From Dehalococcoidia bacterium (GTDB taxonomy: Bacteria > Chloroflexota > Dehalococcoidia > GIF9 > UBA5629): DNA of 64,000 bases. This document shows, one piece after another, positions 8,556 through 62,297 of this stretch. The position numbers and the translations under genes are program-made. Each line of letters begins with the position of its first letter. Within the stretch, counting starts at the first letter, position 1. The notes below the pieces were generated by a model, which did not search any database, was not told the origin of the DNA, and saw only the letters and a list, made by a program, of their open reading frames with translations. The stretch is from positions 5,994 through 69,993 of the forward strand of contig DAOTVU010000060.1 in NCBI GenBank assembly GCA_034436215.1, given 5' to 3'.

Positions 8556-8624
8556 TACATCTCCTATTTAATAATATTAATAATACATATTGCTTGAGCT
8601 TTATGCGCAACGTTCATTTTCTCA

Positions 8625-9599: not shown

Positions 9600-9616
9600 G
9601 CATTTACCTCCGATTG

Positions 9617-10657: not shown

Positions 10658-10700
10658 TTCATCTACCTTTTTGCTAATTTTCCGTAATCATGCACCGGTT

Positions 10701-11084
10701 TCAGGAAGAATGGACACATTCCGGATAAACACGGCATACAGTTGAGAGTTTCTCCAGATCGGACTTCGACAGCTCATTGACCATCAGTCGTTTCCTGACG
10801 GACTTTAAAAGATCGACGGTTGCTTCATCCATATTATCCCAATCGATCAGGTAAAATGAGAACAGTCCGCGATGTCTGACCTTTAATATCCCTGCATTGT
10901 GCATAATTCCGAGATGGTGAGAGACCCTGGGTTGCGATATCCCCAGCACCTGGATAATCTCACACACACAGCACTCACGCTCAAACAGCATATTGAGCAT
11001 CCTCAATCTCGTCTCATCGGCAAGCGCCTTCAATAATTTGACCGTGTCCTGCATATTTTTACTCCCGTAGAATCTATATAACAA
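10701..11084 (-). CDS. ArsR/SmtB-family metalloregulator (HTH)
   Basis: LADETRLRMLNMLFERECCVCEI...ISQPRVSHHL helix-turn-helix with metal-site Cys pair. Confidence 0.8.
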   Translation of the reverse strand: MLYRFYGSKNMQDTVKLLKALADETRLRMLNMLFERECCVCEIIQVLGISQPRVSHHLGIMHNAGILKVRHRGLFSFYLIDWDNMDEATVDLLKSVRKRLMVNELSKSDLEKLSTVCRVYPECVHSS

Positions 11085-11103
11085 TATTATTATATAGTTA
11101 TAT
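11076..11103. promoter_or_regulatory. Inverted repeat ATATAAC-N14-GTTATAT immediately upstream of arsR start (candidate ArsR operator)
   Basis: Read directly from sequence. AT-rich, overlaps the expected promoter of the minus-strand operon. Confidence 0.3.
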
Positions 11104-11448
11104 TTAGTTATAATGATATCGCTCGGATTTTTAGATTGTCAAATGGCAGCTATTTTGATAAATATACGGCCTACTATAGAAATGATGATTAAATGGCAGA
11201 TAAAATTATATGCAGACCAACACCGAAATGAAATCCGCAAAAAAGAACGGTTGCTGGATTTTCAATTTTTATCTGCCCCACATATTTGAATTGCATGGTT
11301 GCGCATTATTGCAATTATCTATGAGCTTTGATATCATTATATTTAGGTATTTAATATCCGTTCAATTTCAAATTAAGGGGGTAACTGCGATAGACGGGAT
11401 TAAATTAGAGAGAAATTCGCAACTGGAAAATATTTAAGGAGGTTTTAT

Positions 11449-11904
11449 ATGTTTGCCAAGGTACTCTACCCAACCGATTTTTCCGATGTATCCACCAAAG
11501 CTCTGGAGTATGTTAAAAAACTGAAGGAAGCCGGAACTACCGATGTTGTTGTCGCCCACATAATCGATAAAAGGGAAACTGTTTGCGTGGGACCATGTGC
11601 AGCGTGGGGAAATATGACAGTGAGCGAAGCTGAAGCAAACTTGAGAAAGACACTGGAAACAGACGCACAAAAAAAATTGCGCTCCATCGAGGCCAAATTA
11701 AGAAAATCCGGCTTCGAGGTCAAGATACGATTGGAAACGGGCAGCCCCGTACAGGAGATTTTAAAGATCGAAGAGGAGGAGAAGGTTTCTGTCATCGTCA
11801 TTGGTTCTCACGGCAAGAGCAATATCAAAGAAGTTTTTCTTGGCTCAGTTTCAGAGAATGTTATCAGACACTGTAAGAAGCCCGTTCTGGTCGTAAAGAG
11901 ATAG
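11449..11904 (+). CDS. Universal stress protein UspA
   Basis: 151 aa. VIGSHGKSNIKEVFLGSVSENVIRHCKKPVLVV C-terminal ATP-binding motif. RBS AAGGAGG upstream. Confidence 0.8.
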   Translation: MFAKVLYPTDFSDVSTKALEYVKKLKEAGTTDVVVAHIIDKRETVCVGPCAAWGNMTVSEAEANLRKTLETDAQKKLRSIEAKLRKSGFEVKIRLETGSPVQEILKIEEEEKVSVIVIGSHGKSNIKEVFLGSVSENVIRHCKKPVLVVKR

Positions 11905-11912
11905 GCATTAAA

Positions 11913-12260
11913 ATGCATAAGCTGGTGAAAATATCCAAAGCCCTCTCCGATGAGACGAGAATCAGGATGCTTAAGTTATTACTGGATGAGGACATCTGCG
12001 CCTGTGAAATGAGAAAAATATTCCCTCTTTCACTCCCCCAGCTATCGAGAAATCTGAAAATGCTGATGGAGGCGGGCTTTTTAAAATGCTGGCGTGATGG
12101 AAAATGTTTGGTTTACATAGCGGACAGAGACAGCGCTGATGACTATTGCCGTACACTGATGGATTTACTATCAGCCTCATATAATAATTCTGAAACGGTA
12201 TTAAAAGACCGTATGAAATTAAAACAGGTAAAAGCAAACAAAGTAAGGGTATGTTGTTAA
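11913..12260 (+). CDS. ArsR-family transcriptional regulator
   Basis: LSDETRIRMLKLLLDEDICACEM...SLPQLSRNL HTH. Confidence 0.75.
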   Translation: MHKLVKISKALSDETRIRMLKLLLDEDICACEMRKIFPLSLPQLSRNLKMLMEAGFLKCWRDGKCLVYIADRDSADDYCRTLMDLLSASYNNSETVLKDRMKLKQVKANKVRVCC

Positions 12261-34311: not shown

Positions 34312-36120
34312 TTATTTCCCCTTCCAATCGTTTGAGCCGGAGTTATATCCGTACTCATTCGATGCATATTCATCCTCTTCCTCTTCGTATTCCTCATCGT
34401 CCAGGTTTCTGAGCTTACGTATCGTATGTCCGATCCAGAAGAACATAAAACCAAAGAGCGCCAGACCGAGGATAATCAGTATCCACTTCACCCATTCCGG
34501 CATATTGCTGACGATTGTAAAGAAGGTATGGCCTTTATAGAAGGAGCTGACCAGCGACCAGTTGCTTTCATTGGAGGCACGATCAACTGCCTTTACACGC
34601 CAGTAGTAAGGTTTATCCCTGCCGGGCAACATCTTGCTGTCTTCAGTTATATCAATATAATTAGCCACGATATTGGCCTGCGACATGATGATATTGGTAA
34701 ACTTGGGATCTTCGGCTATTTCCAGTGTATACGTGACGCCGCTCGGGTCTGATACCGGAGCCCATTCGAAATGAACATCCTTGGTCATACGCTCACCATC
34801 GGAAGGGAGTGATAGAGATGGAGCTGTAGGCGGCGTTGATTCAACGGTAAAAACAACGCGCTGCATATTCACACCATCGCTGGCCACGATGGTATGCTGA
34901 CCGAATCGGCTGACCGGGATTTTAAATATCTGTGAAAAACTTCCCGTTGAATCCACCGCCGTTCCTTCAAGTTTGATATTATCGTAAGTCAGGCTGACCG
35001 GGAAGCCCGGCCTGAAACCCAGGCCTCTAACCGCCACCTGCATACCTACAAATCCGGTTGCAGGGCTGATGGATAAAGCGGAACTCACGTTGATGTCTTT
35101 AAAAGCCTTATTAACACGATCATCAACTTTGATCCTGTGGGTGCCATCGCCACAGGCGGGCACGATGACCCCGGTGGTGAAGCTGCCGTTCGCATCGGTC
35201 TGGGTAACGCCGATGTCCTTATCATCCCAATAAATCAACACATCGGAAACGGTTTGAAAACCTGTTCCCATCACGGTAACGTTATCACCCACTGCGGCCG
35301 ATGTGGGTATAATATCCATCTGCTGTCTGACATTGAATACCTGCGTGGCAATGTTATTATCGCTATCCTGAGCTTTGATATGATGATTACCCCTGCCAAG
35401 TGCGGGTATGGTTAATTTCAAATCGTAAAAGCGCCCCTTTTCATCGGTTTCCGCAGTTACCAGTTTGGAATCGTCGACGCCTACATAAACGAGCTTTTTA
35501 CAGGCGAATCCGTAACCGTTAACCAGAACAGTATCACCGACAAAACCACTGACCGCATTATTTCCCAGGGTAATAGAGGGATTGACTTTAAACCCGGCGG
35601 TAAGTTTGTTGACTCCATCATCAGCCATGATGATATAGCGGCCGGCCGGGTAAATATCAATGGGAAAATCAACCACACCATAACCGGTGCTATCGGTCGT
35701 CAACCTGGTTGCCACAATAGTCTTGACTTCGGCTGTCGTACCGGTTCCAATTACAGTTGTCGTGCCGAAGGTAATAATTACCTGCTTGTTAACCTGATAA
35801 TTAATCACACGTATGTAAACCTGGGTGCCCACCGTCCCTTCCTGTGGCATTACTTCAAGTACAGGGGGACCAACGGTGGTTGAGTTATCCGCTACAACCC
35901 GCTCACAGGGAATATTTACACTCAGAATATACAACGGCAGTAACGAAAGCAATGTCAGCAATCTGATAATAACCACATAATAGCAGAAAGGTTTTGTTTT
36001 TCCCTTATTACATCCCCAGGTTGCAATCAGCCGGAAAAACGCTGACTTTATCACTTGCAGCACCTTGATAAAATTATCGACTATCATGTTTCCCTCCTCT
36101 TTATTCTGAGTGTAAACCAC
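34312..36120 (-). CDS. Large cell-surface protein: N-terminal TM, four Ig-like repeats, FN3, C-terminal TM and acidic cytoplasmic tail
   Basis: Repeats G.V.V.G.GF...HxIxAxD. HFEWAPVSDPSGVTYTLEIAEDPKF FN3. WILIILGLALFGFMFFWIG TM. DDEEYEEEEDEY tail. Directly downstream of arlJ in same orientation. Confidence 0.5.
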   Translation of the reverse strand: MVYTQNKEEGNMIVDNFIKVLQVIKSAFFRLIATWGCNKGKTKPFCYYVVIIRLLTLLSLLPLYILSVNIPCERVVADNSTTVGPPVLEVMPQEGTVGTQVYIRVINYQVNKQVIITFGTTTVIGTGTTAEVKTIVATRLTTDSTGYGVVDFPIDIYPAGRYIIMADDGVNKLTAGFKVNPSITLGNNAVSGFVGDTVLVNGYGFACKKLVYVGVDDSKLVTAETDEKGRFYDLKLTIPALGRGNHHIKAQDSDNNIATQVFNVRQQMDIIPTSAAVGDNVTVMGTGFQTVSDVLIYWDDKDIGVTQTDANGSFTTGVIVPACGDGTHRIKVDDRVNKAFKDINVSSALSISPATGFVGMQVAVRGLGFRPGFPVSLTYDNIKLEGTAVDSTGSFSQIFKIPVSRFGQHTIVASDGVNMQRVVFTVESTPPTAPSLSLPSDGERMTKDVHFEWAPVSDPSGVTYTLEIAEDPKFTNIIMSQANIVANYIDITEDSKMLPGRDKPYYWRVKAVDRASNESNWSLVSSFYKGHTFFTIVSNMPEWVKWILIILGLALFGFMFFWIGHTIRKLRNLDDEEYEEEEDEYASNEYGYNSGSNDWKGK

Positions 36121-36742
36121 CTAAAAACTGTGAAATTTCCGAACCCAATTTAGTTATATTATCTATATCCACATCAAAAAGATTGGCAGCCAGATCGGAG
36201 GTTGAGGAATCTTCAGCCTCTTCAACCTCGAAGACACTCATCAGGTCTACCTGCTCTTTAGGCATCTCCTGTTCTCCGTCGGTCAATGTATCCAGTGAAG
36301 GGAGATCAGGCAATTCCAATCCCCCGCCAGGTCGGTCGGCTGCCCGACCTGCAGGAGCAGCTTCCGATGCAGGCATTTCCGGTTCGGTGATGGCTTCCGG
36401 AAGAGTTATATTATCCTCCCCTTCCGTTTCAGCCATTTTCTGGGCTGCAGCCCTACTGCTATCTCTGTCACTCGACTTACCCGATGCACTGGCCTTCTCT
36501 TTCTTAGCTTTACCGTCCGGCAGGAGCCTGCTTTCGGGATATTCCTTAAGCTGCATCAGTCCATCCTGTTTATCTCTCTTTTTGCCATCGGCGGCAATTT
36601 GCGCCTTTCTCCCGCCAGCACCGCGCTTCACTCGACGCTTGCGAGGCACCATGCTTCTGATAATCATCCACATGACACCGAACACCGCGCCCGACGCTAC
36701 CAGTATCATCAGTAAATAGATACCAATCTCGTAAAAATCCAA
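36101..36742 (-). CDS. Single-TM protein with basic juxtamembrane segment and long acidic disordered tail
   Basis: MDFYEIGIYLLMILVASGAVFGVMWMIIRSMVPRKRRVKRG then Lys-rich, then E/D-rich low complexity. Confidence 0.4.
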   Translation of the reverse strand: MDFYEIGIYLLMILVASGAVFGVMWMIIRSMVPRKRRVKRGAGGRKAQIAADGKKRDKQDGLMQLKEYPESRLLPDGKAKKEKASASGKSSDRDSSRAAAQKMAETEGEDNITLPEAITEPEMPASEAAPAGRAADRPGGGLELPDLPSLDTLTDGEQEMPKEQVDLMSVFEVEEAEDSSTSDLAANLFDVDIDNITKLGSEISQFLGGLHSE

Positions 36743-36765: not shown

Positions 36766-38337
36766 TTAACCGCCCATAGGCATTGCTCCGAACATACCCT
36801 TAACCATGCCGGGAATAAATATGAATGCCAGACCCGATATAATCATCATGATTGTTAGAAGATAGAGATATTTATAGTTATGTCCTCCATCGACCACTTT
36901 TATAGCCGCCGGATTGACTACCGTAAGCATCAGAAGCATGGCCGTAACCATCAGGTTGAGTATCTGTAGCTGGCCTGTAGAATTGGAGAAAAAGGCAAAG
37001 GTTGGCAGAGATGATATAGCTGAGAGATCCTGTGTACCCCCGGTGGTCTGCATTTTCTGCATAGCCTGAGCGAAATTCCACATAATCTGATAGATGCCTA
37101 CCAGCAAAACAGCCATCGTCACATGCATGGCAACGCATAAATAAAAGAAGGCAGATGATACCGCCTTCCTTTTTCCACGCAGCAAAGCTATCTTCATAGC
37201 AAACATCGAAGCCTGATTACCTACCGCTCCAGGATCTCCGCCCACAGCGATACCGTCCCAGAATATGCGGACACAGCGATTTATATGCTCGCTGCCCGAT
37301 TCGCACACAAACTTATGCCAGCAAAGGTCAGGCCGAATGCCAAAGCGTAGAGCATTATTCAGTCTGATAACCGGCTTTTTAAGAGAAGCCAGCGAGCCGA
37401 AATCAAGCCGGCTGATGCCTTCGGTAATGGTTGCACCTATTACCTTGGTTATCCCGCCGAGAGACCTGAGAAAACCGGCTATATCGGCATCGTTCTTATC
37501 TATTTTCCTGTCATCCCACCATATCAAGATACCCGGCGGCGCGATAATAAGCGCTATAACTATCAGCGACCAGCCCATGCCGGCATTCATCAGAAATAAT
37601 ACCGGCAACGATAGCACTGCCAGTGGAACGGAAACATAGAACAATACCTTACGCGCCAGTTCCTGTGCCCTTGATGTCTCCGGCAGTGAGTGTGTTTTTA
37701 CCTCTTTGGGCGATGCCCTGTAAAGTATCCATGCACCTGCAATGACAGAAATCAGCATCAAAAAAGTAAGCACCGACGAAAAAGTGGGTGGCATGGGGAA
37801 AATCAGCATCGATACCACGCTGATAACAACCACCATAGAAGCCGAGATTATTAAAGCCGCATAAGCATCTGTCCACTTACGCAGGCTTTCGATCTGCCTT
37901 TCGTACTCATCAGCGTAAGTCTCACCCATAACTTCGGCTTCGCGCTTGAGAAACTGCGCCTCATCTTCACCCGAAGCCATAGCACCCGACATCCGCAATA
38001 AAATAGCCTTGGGCTCGGCCTCCCTGGTAGATTCACCGACCATGCGACACGCCTCCGAATAATCGTAATTCAATCTTTTAGCCAGGAAATGCACCTTGCG
38101 CAGATAAACCGAAGAAGTAAAATTCAACCGGGATGCATATTCAAACATCAGCGATCTGGGTAAAGATGACGTAGCCAGAGCCGACATATAAGTAATCTGA
38201 CAGAACAGGTCTCCCTTGAGAAGATCGGTGTTCATCTTGATCTTCCCGTTACCTGAGCCGGATATTACATCGGCTTCTGTACGCGAATTAGAAAAGCCCT
38301 TCCCGTTGTGCTTTAGCAAGGACCTTAAGGAGATCAT
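36766..38337 (-). CDS. arlJ: ArlJ/FlaJ-like polytopic membrane platform protein (TadC/GspF superfamily)
   Basis: 523 aa, two blocks of TM helices separated by cytoplasmic domains. Position immediately downstream of FlaI-like ATPase. Confidence 0.65.
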   Translation of the reverse strand: MISLRSLLKHNGKGFSNSRTEADVISGSGNGKIKMNTDLLKGDLFCQITYMSALATSSLPRSLMFEYASRLNFTSSVYLRKVHFLAKRLNYDYSEACRMVGESTREAEPKAILLRMSGAMASGEDEAQFLKREAEVMGETYADEYERQIESLRKWTDAYAALIISASMVVVISVVSMLIFPMPPTFSSVLTFLMLISVIAGAWILYRASPKEVKTHSLPETSRAQELARKVLFYVSVPLAVLSLPVLFLMNAGMGWSLIVIALIIAPPGILIWWDDRKIDKNDADIAGFLRSLGGITKVIGATITEGISRLDFGSLASLKKPVIRLNNALRFGIRPDLCWHKFVCESGSEHINRCVRIFWDGIAVGGDPGAVGNQASMFAMKIALLRGKRKAVSSAFFYLCVAMHVTMAVLLVGIYQIMWNFAQAMQKMQTTGGTQDLSAISSLPTFAFFSNSTGQLQILNLMVTAMLLMLTVVNPAAIKVVDGGHNYKYLYLLTIMMIISGLAFIFIPGMVKGMFGAMPMGG

Positions 38338-40066
38338 AGAAGTTCTTTACCCCCTGTTGACCCAGTTTTTCGAGTATTTTTGCCCGCCGTTCTACCTCAG
38401 CATAAATACGGCGCTTCTTATGCGGTGGTATTCCCAGCTTGGGTGCGATTTTATGTTCGAGGATGTAGCTGTTGCCATCACCCGAGAAAATAAAAGTATC
38501 GGTAATAGGGTCCCAGCGAAATGCCTCCACAAAAGAGAATGATTGAGCTACGGGATCGTAGCCTACGATTTCGTTTATACTGGTCATGCGTCTGCCAGTT
38601 TTGCCGTTGGGCAACTTGACCGCCTGCTGGATAATGCAGATATTCAGGTTATCCATATAGGATTTGGGCACATTGATGGGTGAACCGGTAAGACGTTGAA
38701 TAAGCCTTTCAACCGAGGCGGCGTGGAAGGTGGCCATAACGGAGTGGCCGGTCTGCATTGCCTGAAAAGCAATTGCACCCTCAACACCACGGATTTCACC
38801 CACGATGATTTCATTGGGCCTCTGACGTAATGCAGCCTTGAGCAGATCGAACATCCCCACGCCCGCATCCCCCTCCTTGGTAGTCGAAACAACCTCTCTA
38901 ATCCAGTTCTGGTGCGGCACCTGAAGTTCCGGTGTGTCTTCGATAGAGACAATTTTGGCATTTGGATGGATGAAGGTAGTCACCGCATTAAGGGTAGTGG
39001 TTTTACCGGAAGCCGTTTCCCCGCAGACAAATACATTCATTCCTTCACCGATGGTAATGGACAGGTATGCCGCCATCTTATAATCAAGGGTACCCATATC
39101 GATAAGCTCGAGTATCGACAGCGGTGTCTCGCTGAATTTTCTGATGGTGAAATTGGAACCGCGTTTGGAAACATCGGTACCGTAAACGATATTGATACGC
39201 GAGCCGTCCGGCAGAGTAGCATCCACTATCGGGCTATGCACGCTGACCGGCTTTTTAATTCTCTCGGCCAGTCTCATGACAAATTGATCGAGGTCTTCAG
39301 ATGTAGAAAAATTGATTACCGTTTTCAGACTTTTAAAGATTTTGTGCTCAACGAAAATCACACCCATGCCGCTGCAGCTCACATCCTCGACATATTTATC
39401 ATACACGATGGGATCCAGCACACCCATGCCCACCTTATCCCGTATAATCAGATATTTAATTTCCTGTAACTGCCGGGGTGTCACTTCCAGCGGCCTTATC
39501 CTGTTATTGACTGATATCCTGTCCATGAGACCGATACCGCCTTTACCTTTGCCATTTACATTTCCTCTGAGGCCATTTCGCATACCCATTGGCGAAGGCT
39601 GGCTACCCTTGATAACACATATCTCATCGATACAGCGTGAAAATGCCTCTCTTTTTTCTTCCTCAGTTTTTATGGAAAAGTCACCCAGTCTATCAGACAT
39701 ATCCAGCAGGCGTTTCTCCACTTCAATTAAAAGATGATCGATGTTATGTGTTAATGTAGGTTCGATCGGGATGTATGTATTTCTGCCGTCTCCGTGATCG
39801 TAAATTATATGTGTAAATACACCATCTTTAACCGGATAAATAAGATTGGGATTGGGGGTTGAGCCCATGCTGCGTTCGAGCTTCTCATAATATTTAGGCA
39901 TACCGTAGTTATCTATGGGCACCAGTTGCAGATACTCCAGGAGGTGTGGGTTCTTTTGAACGACCTCCTGAGCCTGTTTGGATAGCAGACTGAGTATATT
40001 ACAGCTATCAGGCCTTTTCTTATTTTTAGCATCTGCTACAGGGAAAGGGAGTATAATTTCCGGCAT
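38288..40066 (-). CDS. arlI: ArlI/FlaI-like secretion-superfamily ATPase (type IV filament assembly motor)
   Basis: Walker A VCGETASGKTTTLNA, Asp/His boxes, IIVGEIRG Walker B. 592 aa with long N-terminal domain as in archaeal FlaI. Confidence 0.8.
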   Translation of the reverse strand: MPEIILPFPVADAKNKKRPDSCNILSLLSKQAQEVVQKNPHLLEYLQLVPIDNYGMPKYYEKLERSMGSTPNPNLIYPVKDGVFTHIIYDHGDGRNTYIPIEPTLTHNIDHLLIEVEKRLLDMSDRLGDFSIKTEEEKREAFSRCIDEICVIKGSQPSPMGMRNGLRGNVNGKGKGGIGLMDRISVNNRIRPLEVTPRQLQEIKYLIIRDKVGMGVLDPIVYDKYVEDVSCSGMGVIFVEHKIFKSLKTVINFSTSEDLDQFVMRLAERIKKPVSVHSPIVDATLPDGSRINIVYGTDVSKRGSNFTIRKFSETPLSILELIDMGTLDYKMAAYLSITIGEGMNVFVCGETASGKTTTLNAVTTFIHPNAKIVSIEDTPELQVPHQNWIREVVSTTKEGDAGVGMFDLLKAALRQRPNEIIVGEIRGVEGAIAFQAMQTGHSVMATFHAASVERLIQRLTGSPINVPKSYMDNLNICIIQQAVKLPNGKTGRRMTSINEIVGYDPVAQSFSFVEAFRWDPITDTFIFSGDGNSYILEHKIAPKLGIPPHKKRRIYAEVERRAKILEKLGQQGVKNFYDLLKVLAKAQREGLF

Positions 40067-40090: not shown

Positions 40091-40816
40091 TTAAGCCCTG
40101 GCCCTGCCGATCGGCATCACGCGCATGCCGATACCCGGATCGACATCAAAGCTCATGATATTACCGGTATTTTTATCGGCACCGCGTACTTTAGCCACTT
40201 CCAGCACCTTGACCAGCTTGTCACCTACCTCCTCGATACGCAATCTCAAGTGGGCATCACAAACCGATCTAATGCGTATCAATACCTGTTCATCAAACGC
40301 ATATGTATGCGTGATATTAATTATTGTCCTGCCACCATCGCAGAGCTTCTTGCACTGCTCAAAATAATCGATAATCTGTTCGGTGGACGTATGGGCTATA
40401 ACCGGTGTGAGGGAATCCACTACAATCAACTTGTAAGTCGGATATGCCATGACTCCGGCTATGATAGTTGAGAAAGTATTGACGGTTTTCATCTTCGACG
40501 GTTCGATAGTAAATATTTTGATCCATCCCAGCAATAACGGGTCGAGTATGCTCAAACCGAGGCTTTCCATCTGGCTGTGCAGACTTTTAACCGTATTTTC
40601 GGTTGTAAACAGCAGCACTTTATGACGCGCATTCAGGGCACCCCACATCATCTGCTGTGAAAGGACCGATTTACCAGCGTCCGACTGTCCTTCGATCAAT
40701 GTCAGTGACCCGACGGGGATCCCGCCGCCCAGTCTTTTATCGATCTCTGAGTGACCCGTACATATTATTTCGTCCTGCGATCGTTCTTCTTCATCCGATG
40801 CCAGTATCTTCGTCAT
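40091..40816 (-). CDS. arlH: ArlH/FlaH-like KaiC/RecA-superfamily ATP-binding protein
   Basis: 241 aa. GIPVGSLTLIEGQSDAGKSVLSQQM Walker A in the FlaH arrangement. Located between arlG and arlI. Confidence 0.7.
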   Translation of the reverse strand: MTKILASDEEERSQDEIICTGHSEIDKRLGGGIPVGSLTLIEGQSDAGKSVLSQQMMWGALNARHKVLLFTTENTVKSLHSQMESLGLSILDPLLLGWIKIFTIEPSKMKTVNTFSTIIAGVMAYPTYKLIVVDSLTPVIAHTSTEQIIDYFEQCKKLCDGGRTIINITHTYAFDEQVLIRIRSVCDAHLRLRIEEVGDKLVKVLEVAKVRGADKNTGNIMSFDVDPGIGMRVMPIGRARA

Positions 40817-40976: not shown

Positions 40977-41345
40977 TCAGGCTCGTAAATTTCCGGCTTC
41001 CCCTGGAAAAAAAAAGCCGGCCGTTACCCATCCCGGGATGGCAGTCCCATAGGGAATCCACAGGGTATCGCCATCCTGGTAACGTACGATTACATCCCAT
41101 TTAGAATAGTTATACAGGTCCGCTTTACCGGTATTCTGGATATCGACGTTGACCACAGACCCTCTGCTCAGTGTGGAGGTGGCGGTACAACTTATATTCG
41201 AATCGATCATGTTACGTGTAATCGATTCCTCGGTCCGCAGTGCCTCAGAAATACTGTTCACAGCGTTGAGTGTGCTGGTTGCAACCGACACCGCACCGAT
41301 AATTAATAAAGCAATGCACACAAGTGAGATAGCGAAATTCTCCAT
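40977..41345 (-). CDS. ArlG/ArlF-like N-terminally anchored beta-sandwich protein, probably truncated by a frameshift at an A9/T9 homopolymer (true end likely ~40847)
   Basis: N-terminal TM MENFAISLVCIALLIIGAV. ORF ends just after FFF (T9). +1 frame continues 52 codons open with protein-like sequence up to 40847. Confidence 0.45.
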   Translation of the reverse strand: MENFAISLVCIALLIIGAVSVATSTLNAVNSISEALRTEESITRNMIDSNISCTATSTLSRGSVVNVDIQNTGKADLYNYSKWDVIVRYQDGDTLWIPYGTAIPGWVTAGFFFPGEAGNLRA

Positions 41346-41821
41346 GGCACTCCAATACTCGTACTGTAAATTTCCTGGTCGGTTATACCGTTGGGCAGTA
41401 CAAACTTCAGATAATACGATCCGGACGGCGCAGAATTTAAATATATGGTGATCTTAATGGTAGCTGTGGGTTCCCAGGCGGAAGCATTTTCGATAATATA
41501 ATTCCAGCACGGTCTGCTTGATGCCAGCGCATCATAAGGTATCCTGCTGAAATCGCCTTCAGGCCCGAAAAACAGGTCGCTTTTATCAATGCCCAGTATA
41601 CGCGTCACCCCCACGTTTTTAACCCAGACGTAAACATTATTTCCGCTATCTGAAACTTCTATAATTTCGATTTTCGACCGGATTTTGTCATCGATTTTAC
41701 CCGTAGCCTCTGCGATAGCCCCTGTGCTGTCCATAATAGCCGGGAATATCGCATTAACCACCACCATACAGCACACCACACCGCCGATTATAAGTAGAAG
41801 CGTAACTATTACCTTATCCAC
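41303..41821 (-). CDS. ArlF/ArlG-like N-terminally anchored protein
   Basis: N-terminal TM LLLIIGGVVCCMVVV then beta-rich domain (VYVWVKNVG). Synteny between archaellin and arlH. Confidence 0.45.
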   Translation of the reverse strand: MDKVIVTLLLIIGGVVCCMVVVNAIFPAIMDSTGAIAEATGKIDDKIRSKIEIIEVSDSGNNVYVWVKNVGVTRILGIDKSDLFFGPEGDFSRIPYDALASSRPCWNYIIENASAWEPTATIKITIYLNSAPSGSYYLKFVLPNGITDQEIYSTSIGVPWRISLSHLCALLY

Positions 41822-42776
41822 GGGCTGACTCCTTCATCATAGACAGTACCGACAGCAGGGCATTATCCTGACCGGGTGAGCCGCCCATGAGGCTTTCCAG
41901 CTGTGCCAGCGTTGCCAGATAATCGGTAGCGGTTGGAGTCTGTCCGTTAGCCTCGTAGCGAGAAATGCGTATCATGCGTATCATCACATCTCTTAATTTT
42001 TCGGGTATTCTGCCCATAGCGGTAGACATTTCAACCAGTGCTTCCGTCCGGTCTTTGCCCAGCTTGGCTGTTGCCTGATCCACCCATTGAGTTAAGCCAG
42101 CTATAACCACCAGGTCGGCTCTGGTACCAACGGTAGAGCTGGCAAGGTTCTTTTTCTTTCCTCCACGTCCTGTTAAGCTCTTTGATGCCCGTCTATCCTC
42201 CTGATCTTCATCTTCCTCGTCAGCCTCCTCATGGAGTTCCATTTCCTCCTCGACTTCCATCTCTCTTTTCTTCCTGCTGCGCGAGCTTTTGGCTTTCTGA
42301 GCAGGTTCTGCGTCCTCTTCATCTTCCGTACGCAACTCGGTCTGAACCCCGGCTGACGATACCGGTCCGGATGACGGCCCCGGGCCGGCGGCTTCACCCA
42401 TACCTGCCTGTAAGCCGGGTTTATCCAATTTTCCTGTCAGATCGGGAAAAGGTTTACCGAAACTCATATCCGGCGTATCCTCAACAGGAGCAGGAGACAG
42501 CTGGTCGTTTTCTCCAATATCCACTTCCTCCTGGCTCACCTCTTCTGGATTATCCTTGATATCCGGGCTGACACCGGCAGGTGGCGTGCCGGTATTGGCC
42601 ACCAGGGCATTAAAGGGGTTCTGGATGTTCAAATATTGCTCTCTGATATCGAGCAGGATGGTTTTTACCTCGTTCTTCAGAATTTTCACTTCTTCTTCGA
42701 GCAATTTTATGCGCTGTTCTTCGTTCATGTTTTTCCCCTTTTTACAGTGGGCATCCGCTTTGCCGCGGATGCCCAC
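41814..42776 (-). CDS. Coiled-coil / acidic low-complexity protein with conserved C-terminal ~110-aa domain (candidate archaellum switch/stator-side component, ArlCDE/ArlX position)
   Basis: N-terminal heptad-like EEQRIKLLEEEVKILKNEVKTILLDIREQ. Long E/D-rich linker. Globular C-terminus. Confidence 0.4.
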   Translation of the reverse strand: MGIRGKADAHCKKGKNMNEEQRIKLLEEEVKILKNEVKTILLDIREQYLNIQNPFNALVANTGTPPAGVSPDIKDNPEEVSQEEVDIGENDQLSPAPVEDTPDMSFGKPFPDLTGKLDKPGLQAGMGEAAGPGPSSGPVSSAGVQTELRTEDEEDAEPAQKAKSSRSRKKREMEVEEEMELHEEADEEDEDQEDRRASKSLTGRGGKKKNLASSTVGTRADLVVIAGLTQWVDQATAKLGKDRTEALVEMSTAMGRIPEKLRDVMIRMIRISRYEANGQTPTATDYLATLAQLESLMGGSPGQDNALLSVLSMMKESARG

Positions 42777-42815
42777 CTTTCACATTACCACCTGTAAATC
42801 AATCGTCTTCAGTGA

Positions 42816-43430
42816 TTAGTGCAAATCCATAACCTTATTAAGAGAAGGCGGCAGTGTCCTCTGTACGGTGATGGTGGAGCCCAGGGACGGTTTAACCTGC
42901 AGGTTAAATGTATCATTGGCAGTCAGGTTTTCGGAAAGGGATTTATTATCGCCCAGATCAAACAGATCGATGGTTATTTCAAACTGCTCACCCTGCTCCA
43001 GCAGGTTGTTGCTGTTGGCTTTACCTATAGCAATTTTGCTCCATTTGACGTTATTGAGATAATCGTTCTTGGTTGTAAGGCTGATCACCGTCTTATTGGT
43101 TGCACTGGAAGTTCCGTCGCACTCGGTTAGATCGATAGGATTACCGGCAATAGCATTTTTAACCGTGAAGAGGATATATCTAACGTTTGTTTCGTCATCA
43201 CTCTTGGCCAGTACCGAGCCGGATAATTCCATATTGCTCTTGGCTTCCTCGAGGCCGGCATAGATGGTTTCCTTGCCTCTTTCGGCTGAGAAGAGGCCTG
43301 CGCTCAACACGGCATAGCCGAACACTGCTGCCACAGTGACGAAGGCAATAAGGATGATGGCGGTCTCGAGACCGGTCATACCTTTTTCACCTCTGTGCAG
43401 CTTTTCCATGGCTTTCATTAACTTCGACAT
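42816..43430 (-). CDS. arlB: Archaellin (ArlB/FlaB-type class III signal peptide filament subunit)
   Basis: MSKLMKAMEKLHRGEKG|MTGLETAIILIAFVTVAAVFGYAVLSAG : basic leader, KG cleavage site, conserved hydrophobic N-terminal helix. ATG with AAGGAGGAAAAA SD. Confidence 0.75.
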   Translation of the reverse strand: MSKLMKAMEKLHRGEKGMTGLETAIILIAFVTVAAVFGYAVLSAGLFSAERGKETIYAGLEEAKSNMELSGSVLAKSDDETNVRYILFTVKNAIAGNPIDLTECDGTSSATNKTVISLTTKNDYLNNVKWSKIAIGKANSNNLLEQGEQFEITIDLFDLGDNKSLSENLTANDTFNLQVKPSLGSTITVQRTLPPSLNKVMDLH

Positions 43431-43611: not shown

Positions 43612-44076
43612 TCAAAGTTTTACCAGTGTAAAGTGACTCCCCTGCTGGAAGAGCACCATCCTCCACAGATGAACGATGCGGATGGCTCCGATTAAGTCGT
43701 TGCGGCCCACGTCTCCGGTCAGAAAGCCGGAAGCCCCATTCTCGATGGCCGGCACCAGGAAATCCTGCTCATCATTTAAAACAATGATGCCTACCTGGGG
43801 AGAATTCTCTTTTATATGAGAGATTACCCTGGTGCTGTCCATTCCCCGTAAGCCGCCGTCCAGAATCACGATATCCGGCATTACCTTCATCACCAAATCC
43901 AGGACTTCTTTACCGTTGCGTGCCTCGCCAACCACCTTAATACTGTCGTCTCCGGCCAGCATATGTCTGATTCCCTCCCGCATGGCCTCACTGCTGTCTG
44001 CTACCACCACACGTATTGCGTCATCAACAACACTCACACCGGCTTCTGGGTATATATCTGATGACCGCGTTATCAT
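43612..44076 (-). CDS. Stand-alone receiver (REC) domain protein with atypical active-site residues
   Basis: VVVADSSEAMREGIRHML...DIVILDGGLRGMD (phospho-Asp present, acidic pocket ADS instead of DD, Lys replaced). Confidence 0.6.
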   Translation of the reverse strand: MITRSSDIYPEAGVSVVDDAIRVVVADSSEAMREGIRHMLAGDDSIKVVGEARNGKEVLDLVMKVMPDIVILDGGLRGMDSTRVISHIKENSPQVGIIVLNDEQDFLVPAIENGASGFLTGDVGRNDLIGAIRIVHLWRMVLFQQGSHFTLVKL

Positions 44077-44255
44077 GACCCTCCTCAGTTCTCCTTAGTT
44101 TCACATACAGCAATCGCTGTTATGCTATATTTTGGCATTAAGAGCAGGAAGCTGTAAGTCCCAAACGGTTTCAGTCCGGTGACCGTTTTAGCTCAAACTT
44201 TTGACACCTTACCGGTAGCCGGCAGTAGCATATGAAATTGAGGATAATTGACCAA

Positions 44256-44285
44256 CAAAAAAGGCCCCGATGGGGCCCTATTTTC
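44256..44285 (-). terminator. Rho-independent terminator (GGCCCCGATGGGGCC flanked by A-run/T-run, bidirectional)
   Basis: AAAAAAGGCCCCGATGGGGCCCTATTTT 21 nt after the NarL-family gene stop. Confidence 0.65.
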
Positions 44286-44305
44286 ATGATGGTAGCATTT
44301 ATAAA

Positions 44306-44950
44306 TCACAACAGATTTCTGCGGTAGGCTTCGGCTACCGCCTGTGTACGATCAACCGCATCCAGTTTGGCGAATATCGTATTTGTTTCTCGTTTGATGG
44401 TCGCTTCGCTAACACATAATTTGGCTGCGATTTCCCTGTTGGTGACTCCGGCCGCAATAAGCCTTAGTATATCCAGTTGCCGCGGGGACAGGAGCGAATT
44501 ACGGCTGAGCTGGGCTACATTGCCGAACTGTGTAAAAAGCGTTCGGGTTATCGAAGGAGCAAACGGTGACTGTCCTTCATAGGCCAGTTTAATGGACCTG
44601 GAAAGGTCTTCCCGGCCGATATCTTTGAGCAGGTAACCTACAGCTCCCGCCTCGGCGGCCTGTGCCAGATATTTATCCTCGTAAACCGTTAAAATAATTA
44701 TATTTGCCCGGCAGTTCCTTGACTTTAATTGGCGGGTAGCTTCTATTCCTCCCATCCCGGGCATACGCACATCCATTAAAATAATATCCGGATCATATTC
44801 TTCGGCCTTGATAATCGCTTCTTCGCCCGATTTGGCTTCACCCACGACCTCGATCTCACCATCCAGCTCGAGCATACGACGCAGGCCTTCACGCACAAGC
44901 TGCTGGTCATCTACCAGCATCACCCTGATCTGCTTATCCGTCTTACTCAT
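44306..44950 (-). CDS. NarL/FixJ-family response regulator (REC + LuxR HTH)
   Basis: [16 protein letters not shown]...[15 protein letters not shown]-terminal [33 protein letters not shown]. Confidence 0.85.
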
Positions 44951-46538
44951 CCGTACCTATCACCGATGCAATATGTTTCACATCACCTGTTATCATCAGC
45001 GGCAACTGCACAAATATCTTCGTGCCTTCGCCCGGTGCCGTCTGTATCTCAAATTTGCCCCCGAGCATTTCCGCCCTCTCTTTCATCGTAATCAATCCGA
45101 TACTGCTCTTAGCCACCTTATCACTGAGTGCAAAGGCCAGGTCAAAACCCTGCCCATCATCTGTTACTTCAACTATGACATATTCTAAATCAAATTTCAA
45201 AACCAGGTCAACGTGTGAAGCACCAGCATGCTTTCGAATATTGTTCATAGCTTCGAGAATTATACGATAAATACTTACTTCCTGTATTAGCGATAGTGAA
45301 TCCATGCTGCCAATGATGCGGAAATCGCAGAACGCGCCGTTTTCACGGTTAAAACTTTCCACATATCGTCGCAATGCTTCGATCAGCCCCAGTTCAGCCA
45401 GCGCGATGGGATGCAGGTCGAGTATTATGCGCCTCAGCTCTTTCACGCTCTGTGTAAGAATATCATTGGTCCGTTTTATCTCATTAAGCGTATCTTCCTG
45501 GCGCTGACTGTTGAGAAAAGCCTCACACAGCTGTAAGCCATAGGAAGCGCTGACCAGCCATTGTGCCAGGCCATCATGCAGTTCGGACGAAATACGCCTG
45601 CGTTCATCTTCCTGTGCCGTCAGCGATTTCTTGAGGAACCTCTCCAGATTCCTCTGCTGCAGCCTTATGTTCTCAAAAAGGGTGGCGTTTTCAATAGCGA
45701 TAGCCGCCTGTCCCGCCAGGATATACAACAACTCGAGGTCACCTTCAGTAAACGGAGTACGAGATGTGATTTTACTGCAGTTAATCACGCCGATAACCTT
45801 CTTTTTAAGCAGCAACGGCACGCACAGAGATGATGCGATGCTGGAATTACCGCTCATGTTTATCTGTCTGGCTTCACCGTTAAGCAGAATTGCCCGGCCG
45901 GTATCAACCACAGACCAGGCTATGCTATCGTTGGATAAGTCCTCGGCTCTGCCGATAAATTCGCCGGGTAATCCTATGGCTGCCTTGATAACCAGCTGCT
46001 GTGTCTCGTCATCCAGCAGCATAAGCGATACACGGTCAGCTCTCGTTTCAATACACACCAGATTAACGATTCTGCTGAATATCTTCTGGGCATCCAGCTC
46101 AGAAACCAGTGATTTATTCAGCTCAAACAGCGGCAGCAGAGTTTTGAGCCGCATGTTTTCCTTGGCAAGCCTGCTCCTCTGAAGGACTTCTTCCACCACT
46201 TTTTTCAGGTTAGCATCATCCACCGGTTTTTCCAGAATCGACTGAGCCCCTGCCTGGAAAGCTTTTATAATCGCATCCGGCGGATCATTCTGCGTCATAA
46301 TGATAATGCCTATTTCCGGGCTGATAAAACGGGCACGCTGAAAGACTTCAAGACAGTTTCCCTGCGGCAGTGAAAGACTGTATATGAGGACATCTATACT
46401 TTTTTTCTGCATAATCGAAAGTGCTTCCGCGCCCGAACCCGTTTTTATAACAGAAAATCCCTCCTCTGACAGCACGTTTTTAACGGTCGTCAGTGTAGAT
46501 CGATCGTCATCGACCAGCAGTATGTTCTCTTTATACAT
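44943..46538 (-). CDS. Hybrid sensor: N-terminal REC + GAF + HisKA_3/HATPase histidine kinase (NarX-type)
   Basis: [11 protein letters not shown]...[14 protein letters not shown] core. H-box [10 protein letters not shown]. ATPase GDGQGFD. Overlaps the RR gene by 8 nt. Confidence 0.75.
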
Positions 46539-46598: not shown

Positions 46599-47162
46599 TT
46601 ATTTTTTCTTCGGCCACCACCCCCACCAGTTTTCCTGTCCGCATTTGGTGCATTTAACCTTTACGGCAACCACACCCACAGATCCGCAGGCGCTGCAGGT
46701 GAATACTTTGCTCAAATTATATCCGGCCGTGCCGCGCAATCCTTCTGAAATCACCTCCACCTGACTGCTCACGTTCTGTATCTGCTGTATGGCTGCTTTC
46801 AAAGCGGCCGGATTCACCTGTGCGGTCTGGTTTTTACCGCTTCCATCGAGTTTTGCCACCATCGCTTCAAGCCTGGAAACACGGTTGGCCAGTTCGCCCA
46901 GCCTCTCATACAAAGCATTGATATCGCCGGCGGCGATACACTCCTCATGGTGATGCCCCCCACCAGGAGGTGCTTCAGGCATGCTCTTTACCCTGGTCAC
47001 ACTCACCTGCTGAACATCGGAGGCCGTCGCCTGAGATGCCGGAATTACCTTGGGAGCAGGCGCCGCAGATACCACCTTGTGCGCGGGAGCAGGCTTACCC
47101 GGTGTTTTGGAAAACATCGCATCTATTTCTTCCTGGGTTAGCATCCTGCTTGTATCATCCAT
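46599..47162 (-). CDS. Small protein with FliM-N-terminus-like CheY-binding motif (LTQEEIDAMF), coiled coil and C-terminal CxxC...CxxC zinc ribbon
   Basis: ATG at 47162 with GGGGA SD (ORF-track start at 47186 is a TTG). MDDTSRMLTQEEIDAMFSK ~ FliM/FliY LSQxEIDALL. C-terminus CSACGSVGVVAVKVKCTKCG. Confidence 0.5.
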   Translation of the reverse strand: MDDTSRMLTQEEIDAMFSKTPGKPAPAHKVVSAAPAPKVIPASQATASDVQQVSVTRVKSMPEAPPGGGHHHEECIAAGDINALYERLGELANRVSRLEAMVAKLDGSGKNQTAQVNPAALKAAIQQIQNVSSQVEVISEGLRGTAGYNLSKVFTCSACGSVGVVAVKVKCTKCGQENWWGWWPKKK

Positions 47163-47194
47163 AGTATATCCCCGTTTAAATATCAATCACCTTT

Positions 47195-48376
47195 TCAAAA
47201 TTCACTTATCTCGCTGATCAGCACATTTCTTTTCGATTCCCTGGAAAGATCAATGTCCTTCTTAGACTCCTTTATCGTCTGACGCTCACTGCATTCAAGC
47301 TGACAGCCCGTACAGATACTGTTCGGCTCATCCACGTCTTTTATAGAGCCGCCGATTATTCTCAACTTTGGCCTGCGTACGCATTCAGGATTTGATTTAC
47401 TCACAATCCCGACCCTGCCGTCGTTCAATTTAACCATCGTCCCGGTGGGGTAAACCGGAACGACTCTGGTAAAAACCCGTACCAGTTCCGGATCGAAAAG
47501 CTCACCGCTGTATGCGTAGATATATTCTATGGCATCCTGAGATGAAACGATGCTCTGCTCAATGGCAAATGACGGCAAGAATTCTTCACGATGGGGACGT
47601 TTGGAAGCCAGTGCAAAACATACATCGGTTATACCGATTATTCCTGCCGATCTGGATATCTCCTGCTCACGCAAACCGTAGGGATATCCGCTGCCGTTCC
47701 ATCTTTCATGATGCTGGAGGACGATATCAACCACTTCCGGATCCACCCCGGTGTACTTTGCCAGAATCTGTGAACCATAGGTCGGATGCCTCTGCACGGC
47801 CTTTATCTCGGCGCTGTTTAAATAACCAGCCTTTTCCAAAATGCCCTGGGGAATAAGCATGTAACCGACATTCTGAAAAACCGCGGCCAAGCCCAGCTGT
47901 TTTATTTCACGTTCATCCATGCCGCATTCTTTCCCGACCAGGATGGACAGACTGGCAACCTTCACCGGATGAACGAAATTATAATCGCGCAGCGAGTAAC
48001 AGCCGGCGATAGATGCGTCTCCACGGTTGTTAGATAACAGATAGGCGATCAGCTCATCAATCAGATTGTTGAGCAATGAGAGATCAATTGGCTGCTGGCT
48101 GCGGCTGACCAGTACGGATCGGCAGTCTATCAGTGCCCGGCGCAATGCCTTTGATATGGCGCCCTCCAGTTCGGGTGGCACCAGAGGTATCACGTTGATA
48201 TCTTCGGTCTTTTTACTGCAGATGAATAGCTCACCCACACCTATATCGTCAACCTTGGCGATATCTCTGGCATCCAGCTTTGTGCCGGCCGGTAAAACCA
48301 TGTCGCCCCAGTTATCATACACCGGTCTGGCCAGCTCCATGCCGGGTTTTACATAGATAGCCGAAATACGCTGCAT
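47195..48376 (-). CDS. HD-GYP c-di-GMP phosphodiesterase (paralog 1) with N-terminal DUF3391-like domain and C-terminal Cys-rich tail
   Basis: QHHERWNGSGYPYGL. CTGCQLECSE near C-terminus. Confidence 0.75.
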   Translation of the reverse strand: MQRISAIYVKPGMELARPVYDNWGDMVLPAGTKLDARDIAKVDDIGVGELFICSKKTEDINVIPLVPPELEGAISKALRRALIDCRSVLVSRSQQPIDLSLLNNLIDELIAYLLSNNRGDASIAGCYSLRDYNFVHPVKVASLSILVGKECGMDEREIKQLGLAAVFQNVGYMLIPQGILEKAGYLNSAEIKAVQRHPTYGSQILAKYTGVDPEVVDIVLQHHERWNGSGYPYGLREQEISRSAGIIGITDVCFALASKRPHREEFLPSFAIEQSIVSSQDAIEYIYAYSGELFDPELVRVFTRVVPVYPTGTMVKLNDGRVGIVSKSNPECVRRPKLRIIGGSIKDVDEPNSICTGCQLECSERQTIKESKKDIDLSRESKRNVLISEISEF

Positions 48377-48403
48377 TTTCTTTCACCTTTGTGTCTCTGC
48401 CGG

Positions 48404-49558
48404 TTAATATTCCATCACCTCTACGATTAATTTACGCTGATGTTCGGCATCGGCCAGGTTTATATCCACGGGCTTTTCCAGCTCACGCAACTCGCTATCA
48501 TAGCAGATACGTACTTTCGGTCGTGAAAAATATCCGCAGTTGGCATTGGAAACGATGCCGACCTCTCCCGTATTCAGCTTTACCATAATGCCCGATGGAT
48601 AGGTCGGCAGTTGTTTGGTGAAGATTTTAACCAGATCGGGATCAAACAGCTCACCGCTGTAAGCAACGATAAACTCCATAGCCTGATGTGGCCGTAAAAA
48701 GTCAGCATCGCCCAGATCACCTGAAAAGGCGTTGACAAATTCCTGTGCCTCTCTGGGCAGGATACAGCCGCGATGCGGCCGTTTGGAAACAAGCGCCACC
48801 ACGCTATCGGTGATGGCGATTATACGTGCACCGTGGCAGATATTCCTCCCCTTCAACCCCGAGGGGTAGCCGCTGCCGTTCCAGCGCTCGTGATGCTGCT
48901 GGATTATCAGAACCGTTTCCTGTGAAGCCTGACCGTATCGTCGAACGATCTCAGCTCCGTAAGCGGCATGCTTCTGAACCGCCTTTGCTTCTGCCTCCGT
49001 CAGCGGCCCCTCTTTATCTATAACGCCCTGTGGCAGGGCAGCATAACCTATATTCTGCAACATAGAAGCCATACCAAGGTTGATAAGTTCGGTCTGACCC
49101 ATGCCGGCAGCTTTCCCGATCAGTAAAGACAGACTGGTTACCTTCACAGGATGTACAAAATCGTAATCCCTTACCGAGTGGCAACCCACAACTACCGGTT
49201 CACCCATAGCTACCGGGAAGAGCTGCTGCACCATCTCGAAAACACCCTGTCTGATGGCAGTTAGATCCAGCATCATGGCCTTCCTGGAGGTGATAATAGA
49301 CTGAGCCTTAAACAGAATCTGTTTCAATGCGGCGGCCAGCGACCCTTCAAGTTCCGGCGTTATGAGAGGCCAGGCAGTCACATCATCTACTCTTTTATCC
49401 ATGATAAAAAGCTCGCCTACGCCCACTTCATCCAGGCTGGCAATATGGGATGCTGTCAGCTTGGTTCCCTCCTTTAAAAGCATCCTGCCGTAAGGGTCGT
49501 AGAGGGCGCGGCCCAGCATCATCGTCGGCTTGGCATATCTGGCAGATATGCGACGCAT
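48404..49558 (-). CDS. HD-GYP c-di-GMP phosphodiesterase (paralog 2)
   Basis: QQHHERWNGSGYPSGL. Same architecture and N-terminal MRRISARYAKP... as paralog 1. Confidence 0.75.
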   Translation of the reverse strand: MRRISARYAKPTMMLGRALYDPYGRMLLKEGTKLTASHIASLDEVGVGELFIMDKRVDDVTAWPLITPELEGSLAAALKQILFKAQSIITSRKAMMLDLTAIRQGVFEMVQQLFPVAMGEPVVVGCHSVRDYDFVHPVKVTSLSLLIGKAAGMGQTELINLGMASMLQNIGYAALPQGVIDKEGPLTEAEAKAVQKHAAYGAEIVRRYGQASQETVLIIQQHHERWNGSGYPSGLKGRNICHGARIIAITDSVVALVSKRPHRGCILPREAQEFVNAFSGDLGDADFLRPHQAMEFIVAYSGELFDPDLVKIFTKQLPTYPSGIMVKLNTGEVGIVSNANCGYFSRPKVRICYDSELRELEKPVDINLADAEHQRKLIVEVMEY

Positions 49559-61481: not shown

Positions 61482-62297
61482 TTACAGCAACTGCGCTAGA
61501 TACCAGTGCAACAGCTCCCTCCCCCAGAGCATAGCCAGAACGGCGCCCAGACATAAAAATGGACCGAAGGGTATGGGGTCCTTTCTCCCTTTTCTGCGGG
61601 CAATCAGCAGCACCACCGCCACCAGACCGCCCACAATTACAGCCAGGAAGAGCGCAACCAGCACGGCGGGAAATCCGACCATAGCGCCGATCAGTGCCGC
61701 CAGCTTGACATCGCCCAGCGCCATCCCTCCCCGGGAAGCGACAACCACCAGCATTAAAAGCAGCAATCCGCAAAAGGCTCCGATTAAAATGTTATAGAAA
61801 TAGATGTTTACGAATGCCAGCATATCCGGCAGAGGGAGTACCAGAGACCAGGGAGGCCTCAGATGTAGAAGCGTTATGGATGCCGATAACAGCAGGGCTA
61901 TGATAAACCCGGGGTAGGTGATGGCATTGGGAAGGAGCATTTTCTCAGCATCGGTGATCATCAGTATCATCAACAGCAGTATGTAAATAGCGGACAGGGA
62001 AAGCACCCAGGAAAAGCCGTACCTGCAAAATATGCAGGTGAAAAGCAGCCCGCCGACTATCTCCACCAGCGGTATGCGCACCGACAGAGCGGCTCCGCAG
62101 CCGGGACACCTTCTTTTAGCCATAAAAAAGCCGGCAACCGGGATTATAAGGTATAAAGACCATGGTCTTCCGCACCCGGTACAGTTTGAAGGGATAAACG
62201 AACGCGGCTCGCGCAGCAGACCGGCGGCAACCAGATTGGCCAGACTGCCACAGCATAGCCCGACTAAAAAAAACAGGAAATACCGGACTATTTCCAT
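61482..62297 (-). CDS. pilD: Type IV prepilin-like leader peptidase (A24 family, PilD/FlaK-class) with N-terminal CxxC...CxxC Zn module
   Basis: CTGCG...CPGCG. Catalytic Asp in ITDAE and GMALGDVKL. 8 TM. Confidence 0.8.
   Translation of the reverse strand: MEIVRYFLFFLVGLCCGSLANLVAAGLLREPRSFIPSNCTGCGRPWSLYLIIPVAGFFMAKRRCPGCGAALSVRIPLVEIVGGLLFTCIFCRYGFSWVLSLSAIYILLLMILMITDAEKMLLPNAITYPGFIIALLLSASITLLHLRPPWSLVLPLPDMLAFVNIYFYNILIGAFCGLLLLMLVVVASRGGMALGDVKLAALIGAMVGFPAVLVALFLAVIVGGLVAVVLLIARRKGRKDPIPFGPFLCLGAVLAMLWGRELLHWYLAQLL

Follow-up and report, generated by a model that had tools for sequence, protein, structure and literature searches.

The window analysed here is a stretch of 64,000 nucleotides (nt) from a Dehalococcoidia bacterium (GenBank assembly GCA_034436215.1, contig DAOTVU010000060.1, positions 5,994 to 69,993 of the forward strand), and it carries a bacterial archaellum (arl) operon in which a gene for an acidic protein lies between the archaellin gene arlB and arlG. 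The listing of open reading frames (ORFs) of the window gives this gene as a 320-amino acid (aa) ORF with a GTG start at 41814..42776 on the minus strand. An earlier reading of the sequence, the original prediction, saw in the product a protein with no obvious relatives and a candidate lineage-specific stator or switch element. The protein is interpreted here as the Chloroflexota (Dehalococcoidia) form of ArlC/D/E, composed of an ArlC-like helix, an acidic linker, and a diverged ArlD/E domain, with a role as a ring and switch scaffold; the probability of this reading is put at roughly 0.8. The gene, its parts, and the hairpin upstream of it are as follows.

41814..42728 (-): arlCDE-like gene after correction of the start; encodes 304 aa, translation checked, with the stop codon at 41814-41816
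42609..42728 (-): amphipathic helix of the coiled-coil type at the N-terminus (residues 1-40 of the 304-aa protein), with NPF at its end and nearly invariant columns
42138..42608 (-): disordered acidic linker rich in Gly, Pro, and Ser, 157 aa; from low model confidence and composition
41817..42137 (-): five-helix domain at the C-terminus, a diverged form of the Arch_fla_DE (ArlD/E) domain; from AlphaFold2, hhalign, and hmmsearch
42746..42777 (-): 13-bp GC-rich hairpin between arlB and the arlCDE-like gene; from sequence and RNAfold

The ORF of the original prediction is exact in its coordinates, but its length of 320 aa does not stand. Nearly all homologues start with MNEEQR, which corresponds to M17 of the 320-aa ORF in the alignment, and the ATG at 42728 is preceded by GGGG and a 6-nt spacer. 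The extent was corrected since the homologues begin at M17 and the 16 codons upstream of it form a hairpin; the ATG at 42728 is almost certainly the true start, with a product of 304 aa. The spurious 16-codon 5' extension is thus created by the hairpin, which reads GGTGGGCATCCGC-ggcaaa-GCGGATGCCCACT (stem-loop-stem). The arlB-arlCDE intergenic region folds at -33.1 kcal/mol in RNAfold, and an equivalent hairpin, with other stem sequences and compensatory changes, is present in 16 of the 17 related loci that were folded. An A-rich stretch and a Shine-Dalgarno sequence follow the hairpin, and the terminator scan does not call it because there is no T-run after it. The hairpin probably ends or stabilises the abundant archaellin transcript. 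Just upstream of it, TTTACAGGTGGTAATGTGAAA is kept in the closest loci. At the other end of the gene, there is an 8-nt overlap between its stop region and the GTG start of arlG, and the two genes may thus be coupled in translation.

The arrangement of N-terminal coiled coil, acidic disordered region, and compact C-terminal domain that had been described for the protein was borne out by AlphaFold2 and by composition (residues below in 320-aa ORF numbering; the full-length model was made with a 38-sequence alignment). A helix at residues 19-52, with a predicted local distance difference test score (pLDDT) of 85-90, shows an a/d-type hydrophobic (heptad) periodicity. The 157 residues of the linker (57-213) have no confident structure, with pLDDT below 50, and this middle region contains 24% Asp and Glu overall, 43% in residues 150-200, and 36% Gly, Pro, Ser, and Ala. 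Five helices with pLDDT 82-92 follow at residues 214-312, and the C-terminal domain modelled by itself with 62 diverse sequences is likewise an all-helical, compact five-helix fold (mean pLDDT 84.4; predicted template modelling score 0.73). The linker is not alignable across the family and ranges from 43 to 283 aa in 200 members (median 142), while the N-terminal helix and the C-terminal domain are 60-70% identical across species; two conserved modules therefore flank a fast-evolving acidic spacer. The isoelectric point of the protein is 4.6. No transmembrane segment was found by Kyte-Doolittle hydropathy (maximum 19-residue mean 1.13), and, having neither such a segment nor a signal peptide, the protein is predicted to be soluble and cytoplasmic. 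Therefore, a stator of the ArlF/G type, one half of the function originally proposed, is not supported, while a switch or ring role is kept as the best reading. Matches to DREPP, SDA1, and Ribosomal_60s in Pfam and NCBIfam scans of the protein and 38 homologues were rejected as low-complexity artefacts of the acidic linker; one JGI record is even named 'ribosomal protein L12E...'.

The gene is placed, as had been stated, in the slot of arlCDE or arlX, between a PF01917 archaellin gene and the genes for ArlG-like and ArlF-like proteins, ArlH, ArlI, and ArlJ.

42816..43430 (-): archaellin ArlB, directly upstream; PF01917, E 1.6e-25
41303..41821 (-): ArlG-like, 172 aa; NCBIfam ArlG, E 7.6e-8, below the curated cut-off
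40977..41345 (-): ArlF-like, 122 aa; NCBIfam ArlF, E 3.4e-5, below the curated cut-off
40091..40816 (-): ArlH (KaiC-like); NCBIfam FlaH PRK06067, 272.8 bits, above the cut-off; PDB 4YDS, E 9.7e-32
38288..40066 (-): ArlI motor ATPase; NCBIfam FlaI, 687 bits
36766..38337 (-): ArlJ platform protein; NCBIfam ArlJ/FlaJ, E 8.4e-123

The order arlG-arlF is that of the arl2 arrangement, which is reported for Chloroflexota arl loci (PMC12488501). Related loci have the syntenic order arlB-X-arlG-arlF-arlH-arlI-arlJ. The slot was counted in 60 loci fetched via ArlH or via the C-terminal domain of the family, only where the contig covers those positions, and the gene has arlB as its immediate predecessor and arlG as its immediate successor in all 19 Dehalococcoidia/Chloroflexota genome loci from GTDB and in all 41 metagenome loci. 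Neither absence from other bacterial arl clusters nor occurrence outside motility loci was thus seen, and three loci of distant family members have the same arlB-X-arlG arrangement. Close relatives of the neighbouring ArlH all come from metagenome-assembled genomes (MAGs) of Dehalococcoidia/Chloroflexota, which identifies the host as bacterial. Since its position in arl loci is constant, the gene is dedicated to the archaellum, and its product is no generic domain of unknown function.

Relatives of the protein are numerous, contrary to the original prediction. A single-sequence search matched 131 proteins, among which the named organisms are Dehalococcoidia/Chloroflexi MAGs; most are labelled 'hypothetical protein', and two are called 'archaellum component FlaD/FlaE' in JGI. 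When a profile of the C-terminal domain was searched against 1.84 billion cluster representatives (50% clustering), 506 representatives were matched at E<=1e-3 and 213 at E<=1e-10, always with the domain at the C-terminus. The N-terminal helix with its [NS]PF end is present in 200 of 253 retrieved family members. A search with the 62-sequence domain alignment returned just nine short fragments and no archaeal link.

Sequence comparison indicates that the C-terminal domain is homologous to the archaeal Arch_fla_DE domain (PF04659) of ArlD and ArlE. Archaeal sequences were reached from Methanocaldococcus jannaschii FlaH (PDB code: 4WIA) through archaeal FlaH proteins to their loci, and the archaeal-type set comprised FlaC, FlaD, and FlaE of Methanococcus voltae, Thermococcus FlaD, a fragment from Archaeoglobus, and three loci from metagenomes; the latter contain one PF04659 gene apiece, which in two cases also encodes FlaC_arch (PF05377). 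In the canonical-type loci L026, L027, L029, and L030, the PF04659 genes occupy the same slot as the gene of the window. With a hidden Markov model (HMM) of 62 family domains searched against all ORFs of five loci, M. voltae FlaE (22.2 bits) and FlaD (12.6 bits) were the best non-family matches; in hmmsearch the same HMM gave 23.0 bits for Thermococcus FlaD, 16.6 for the L029 protein, and 12.7 for the L028 protein. Over the hmmsearch runs M. voltae FlaE scored 21-22 bits, and the lowest of these scores were 11-12.6 bits. Profile-to-profile alignment by hhalign with seven PF04659 domains gave a probability of 94.7% (E 5.8e-8, score 46.3, 89 columns), with the invariant Trp and Gly and a later D-[YH]-L helix ('DYL'/'DHL') in register. 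As controls, 100 column shuffles of the archaeal alignment scored a mean of 10.6 (standard deviation 2.1, maximum 20.1), and the reversed alignment scored 11.5.

PF04659 is the Pfam family matched by most members, in 7 of 65 distant relatives (best E 0.0036), all below threshold; no PF04659 match at E<=1 was obtained for the window protein or 38 close homologues, and the gathering threshold was not reached. A Pfam scan of ten long distant members, chosen by length, had no informative match, and a small HMM of the seven archaeal DE domains found no direct match among the window ORFs. The link is therefore visible only from a Chloroflexota-side profile or from profile to profile. PDB chains searched by sequence and profile gave no match, nor did the model match a PDB fold.

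These results bear on the idea that the protein arose anew within one lineage, without kinship to ArlC/D/E or ArlX, and took over the slot as a new stator or switch element. Such an origin would agree with the lack of a Pfam, NCBIfam, or PDB fold match and with database entries that are nearly all 'hypothetical protein'. It is nevertheless very unlikely: the profile-to-profile match to PF04659 is far outside the shuffle distribution and contradicts the supposed novelty, the HMM matches FlaD and FlaE directly, and PF04659 is the most frequent weak Pfam match among distant members. In addition, the three-part layout equals that of FlaC_arch + Arch_fla_DE fusions such as those of L028 and L030, and the family, with its 506 representatives at 50% clustering, is not limited to one lineage.

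The comparison of the N-terminal helix with FlaC_arch is less clear. Archaeal FlaC regions are coiled coils that end in '...LYE[VL][VL]S..[IV][NS]PF', and the helix of the family ends in '...LLDIRE.YLN..NPF'. PF05377 did not match in any of 103 family members. When hhalign was anchored on the shared [NS]PF motif, the probability was 15.7% over 14 columns, and the anchored global score was 11.5 versus a shuffle maximum of 9.2, a comparison that the anchoring itself biases. Two loci encode single proteins that join FlaC_arch to Arch_fla_DE: L030, where the gene occupies the slot, and L028, a rearranged locus where the gene immediately precedes that for ArlH; acidic linkers also occur in M. voltae FlaD and in the L030 protein. 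The likeness is suggestive, and the N-terminal part is ArlC-like in architecture, its homology to FlaC_arch being unproven.

The slot and the coiled-coil segment would also suit a scaffold of the ArlX type, like the membrane-anchored coiled-coil ring protein of crenarchaea, and the arl2-type order (arlG-arlF) is common to Sulfolobus (PMC12488501). However, it is hardly conceivable that the protein belongs to this type, since ArlX is membrane-anchored (PMC8978795) and the window protein has no transmembrane helix by the hydropathy given above, its C-terminal domain matches ArlD/E, and Chloroflexota are reported to have arlCDE and not arlX (PMC12488501). The component as such is already known: Sivabalasarma et al. 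(2025; PMC12488501) described that most Chloroflexota arl loci, including those of Dehalococcoidales, carry arlCDE homologues instead of arlX, and the window protein is a diverged, unannotated member of that family.

In archaea, ArlC, ArlD, and ArlE have no membrane anchors, are often fused, and form a cytoplasmic ring around ArlH and ArlI (PMC7534055, PMC8978795, PMC9126983). The Haloferax proteins dock via ArlH, are needed for archaellation, and bind the CheY adaptor CheF (PMC7534055). By homology, a cytoplasmic ring and switch scaffold under ArlH, ArlI, and ArlJ is the most likely role of the arlCDE-like protein. In this scheme, with ring, docking, and assembly steps modelled on ArlCDE of Haloferax and Pyrococcus (PMC7534055, PMC8978795), the protein would oligomerise through its coiled coil and C-terminal domain to form a cytoplasmic ring surrounding ArlH and ArlI. 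The ring would dock on the motor through ArlH, archaellum assembly would require the ring protein, and the ring would be the surface where chemotaxis output alters rotation. Since there is one such gene only in the operon, the ring would be homo-oligomeric, unlike the heteromers of ArlC/ArlD/ArlE or ArlCE/ArlD.

Several observations weigh against this interpretation. The window protein itself has no Pfam or NCBIfam match even at E<=1. A Dehalococcoidia-only profile lowers the hhalign score to 24.7 and the probability to 17.7%, which is why standard annotation misses the PF04659 link; because the narrow profile is weak, homology depends on the broadened profile and on an archaeal alignment that is thin, with only seven sequences. 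The helix compared with archaeal FlaC regions without anchoring has a probability of 9.8%, which is not significant. Ring formation, ArlH docking, and switching are drawn from archaeal homologues that share less than 20% identity. Finally, archaeal ArlCDE proteins signal via CheF, which is missing here.

The question of chemotaxis input follows from the last point. A full che operon is contiguous with the arl cluster and encodes CheR, CheB, CheY (118 aa), two methyl-accepting chemotaxis proteins, CheD, CheC, CheA, and CheW. No CheF-like match was found among the ORFs scanned in the che-arl region, and CheF is reported to be absent from Chloroflexota (PMC12488501; bioRxiv 10.64898/2026.05.11.724246). 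Therefore, the last step from phosphorylated CheY (CheY-P) to the ring must differ from that in archaea. How CheY controls the archaellum in a bacterium that lacks CheF is the question raised by Sivabalasarma et al. (2025), and the arlCDE-like protein is the probable receiving surface of this coupling. Candidate partners in the window are CheY, a 195-aa protein bearing an EIDAL-type motif, two HD-domain proteins, and a stand-alone receiver. The CheY of the window is about equally close to those of Pyrococcus (143 bits) and Thermotoga (138 bits), and is thus uninformative on the partner.

It may be, on the other hand, that the protein is a true ArlCDE homologue with a scaffold function only, and that chemotaxis bypasses the ring via ArlH/ArlI, cyclic di-GMP (c-di-GMP), or HD-domain proteins. 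The absence of CheF, the sole known signal adaptor that binds ArlCDE, would be explained in this way; the stretch that separates the che from the arl genes encodes two HD_5 proteins and contains three two-component genes; and a Methanoperedens locus (L024) has che beside arl genes with no PF04659 gene. A scaffold-only function is unlikely, however, since a complete che operon with its CheY adjoins the arl cluster, the conserved surfaces of the helix and the C-terminal domain suggest several binding partners, and the same family is the signal entry point in archaea (PMC7534055). The L024 locus (Ca. Methanoperedens, 6466..11993) encodes an archaellin, proteins of 130 and 147 aa, ArlH, ArlI, and ArlJ. 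Neither a PF04659 gene nor a match to the family profile was found in L024; therefore, ArlCDE is not universal, even beside che genes.

One of the candidate partners is the 195-aa protein.

46599..47186 (-): 195-aa ORF between the che and arl operons; probable start at M9 (47162) or M15 (47144)

The N-terminus of this protein, 'MLTQEEIDAMF', closely resembles the N-terminal peptide of FliM/FliY, and it is followed by a linker rich in Pro and Ala, a coiled coil, a zinc ribbon of the form CxxC...CxxC, and the tail 'WWGWWPKKK'. The longer consensus of FliM/FliY is 'LSQxEIDALL'. The conserved 'EIDALL' motif of these proteins is the binding site of CheY-P (PMC9126983, PMC6946799). When the ORFs of all six frames of the window (69,615 residues) were searched with a relaxed form of the motif, no second occurrence was found. 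Within related loci the motif is confined to syntenic orthologues of the 195-aa protein, 8 of 11 of which carry it, and three more distant orthologues have a degenerate version. In the clade of L017-L020, with the metagenome relative L061 inspected directly, the gene was not found in the upstream DNA available (up to 8 kb). An archaeal FlaC-region HMM matched the 195-aa protein (E 0.0026), a match judged to be coiled-coil noise. A tentative and rather unlikely extension of the scheme is a chimeric switch, in which CheY-P would bind 'MLTQEEIDAMF' on the 195-aa protein, which in turn would act on a homo-oligomeric ArlCDE-like ring. If true, a replacement of CheF would have evolved independently, with the docking logic of the flagellar EIDAL motif reused on an archaellum.

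Other genes of the region are arranged around the same two operons. The stretch 47195..49558 (-), which separates cheR from the arl regulators, encodes a pair of HD_5 (HD-GYP-like) paralogues, one of 393 and one of 384 aa, and this pair suggests a possible c-di-GMP input to motility. Immediately upstream of arlB, at 43612..46538 (-), are genes for a receiver-containing histidine kinase of 531 aa, a LuxR-type response regulator of 214 aa, and a stand-alone receiver of 154 aa; their synteny is kept in nearly all related loci, and the three probably form a module that controls transcription of the arl operon. Directly after arlJ follow a gene for a 213-aa protein with an N-terminal transmembrane helix, a Lys/Arg-rich stretch, an acidic tail, and no family match (36101..36742, -), and a gene for a 602-aa protein with TIG and fibronectin-like immunoglobulin (Ig) domains and a C-terminal transmembrane helix (34312..36120, -). 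The synteny of these two genes is kept across Dehalococcoidia loci, and a giant Ig-domain protein is encoded at the corresponding place after arlJ in L029 and L030; the two gene products may serve to anchor the motor in the envelope. At the far end of the che operon, 61482..62297 (-) encodes a bacterial-type prepilin peptidase (A24_N_bact + Peptidase_A24), which fits the report that non-SAR202 Chloroflexota process archaellins with the bacterial PilD (PMC12488501).

Overall, the bacterial archaellum operon of the window is complete, with its own member of the ArlCDE family of ring proteins, and therefore no new motor part has to be invoked. Neither Pfam nor NCBIfam recognises this arlCDE-like clade, and public databases nearly always label its members 'hypothetical protein'; a model built for the family would mend many annotations, those of at least 506 cluster representatives.

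Compared with known systems, the protein resembles the C-ring of the bacterial flagellum (FliG/FliM/FliN) by analogy only, in its presumed role as a ring on the cytoplasmic side of a rotary motor, to which CheY-P binds; there is no homology, and both the motor and its energy source are different. Crenarchaeal ArlX shares the slot in the operon, the arl2-type order, and a presumed role as a scaffold ring around ArlH and ArlI. However, ArlX is anchored by a transmembrane segment at its N-terminus and lacks a DE domain, and the window protein has no such anchor, no detectable similarity to ArlX, and no family match in the Pfam and NCBIfam scans.

The likeness to ArlD and ArlE (PF04659; M. voltae FlaD and FlaE, Haloferax volcanii ArlD) is closer. 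These are soluble cytoplasmic proteins encoded in the slot between the archaellins and arlF/G, and they have a helical C-terminal domain of about 100 aa with a conserved W...G...G motif and a second 'D-[YH]-L' helix in register; in M. voltae FlaD an acidic linker likewise precedes the DE domain. In contrast, the identity is about 18%, the canonical 'YY..GWIS' is replaced here by 'E[MI]s..MG.[LI]P', and the window protein is below every Pfam and NCBIfam threshold. There is also one copy per operon here as opposed to two or three paralogues, in a bacterial host without CheF. The fused ArlCDE and ArlCE proteins (Haloferax ArlCE, L028, L030) differ in that the window protein has its helix at the very N-terminus and that this helix is far shorter (about 40 aa), with a FlaC_arch probability of at most 16%. 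Nevertheless, they share with it a coiled coil that has [NS]PF at its end, an acidic linker of low complexity, and a DE domain, and the fusions of L030, in the slot, and L028, directly upstream of ArlH, are likewise encoded by a single gene.

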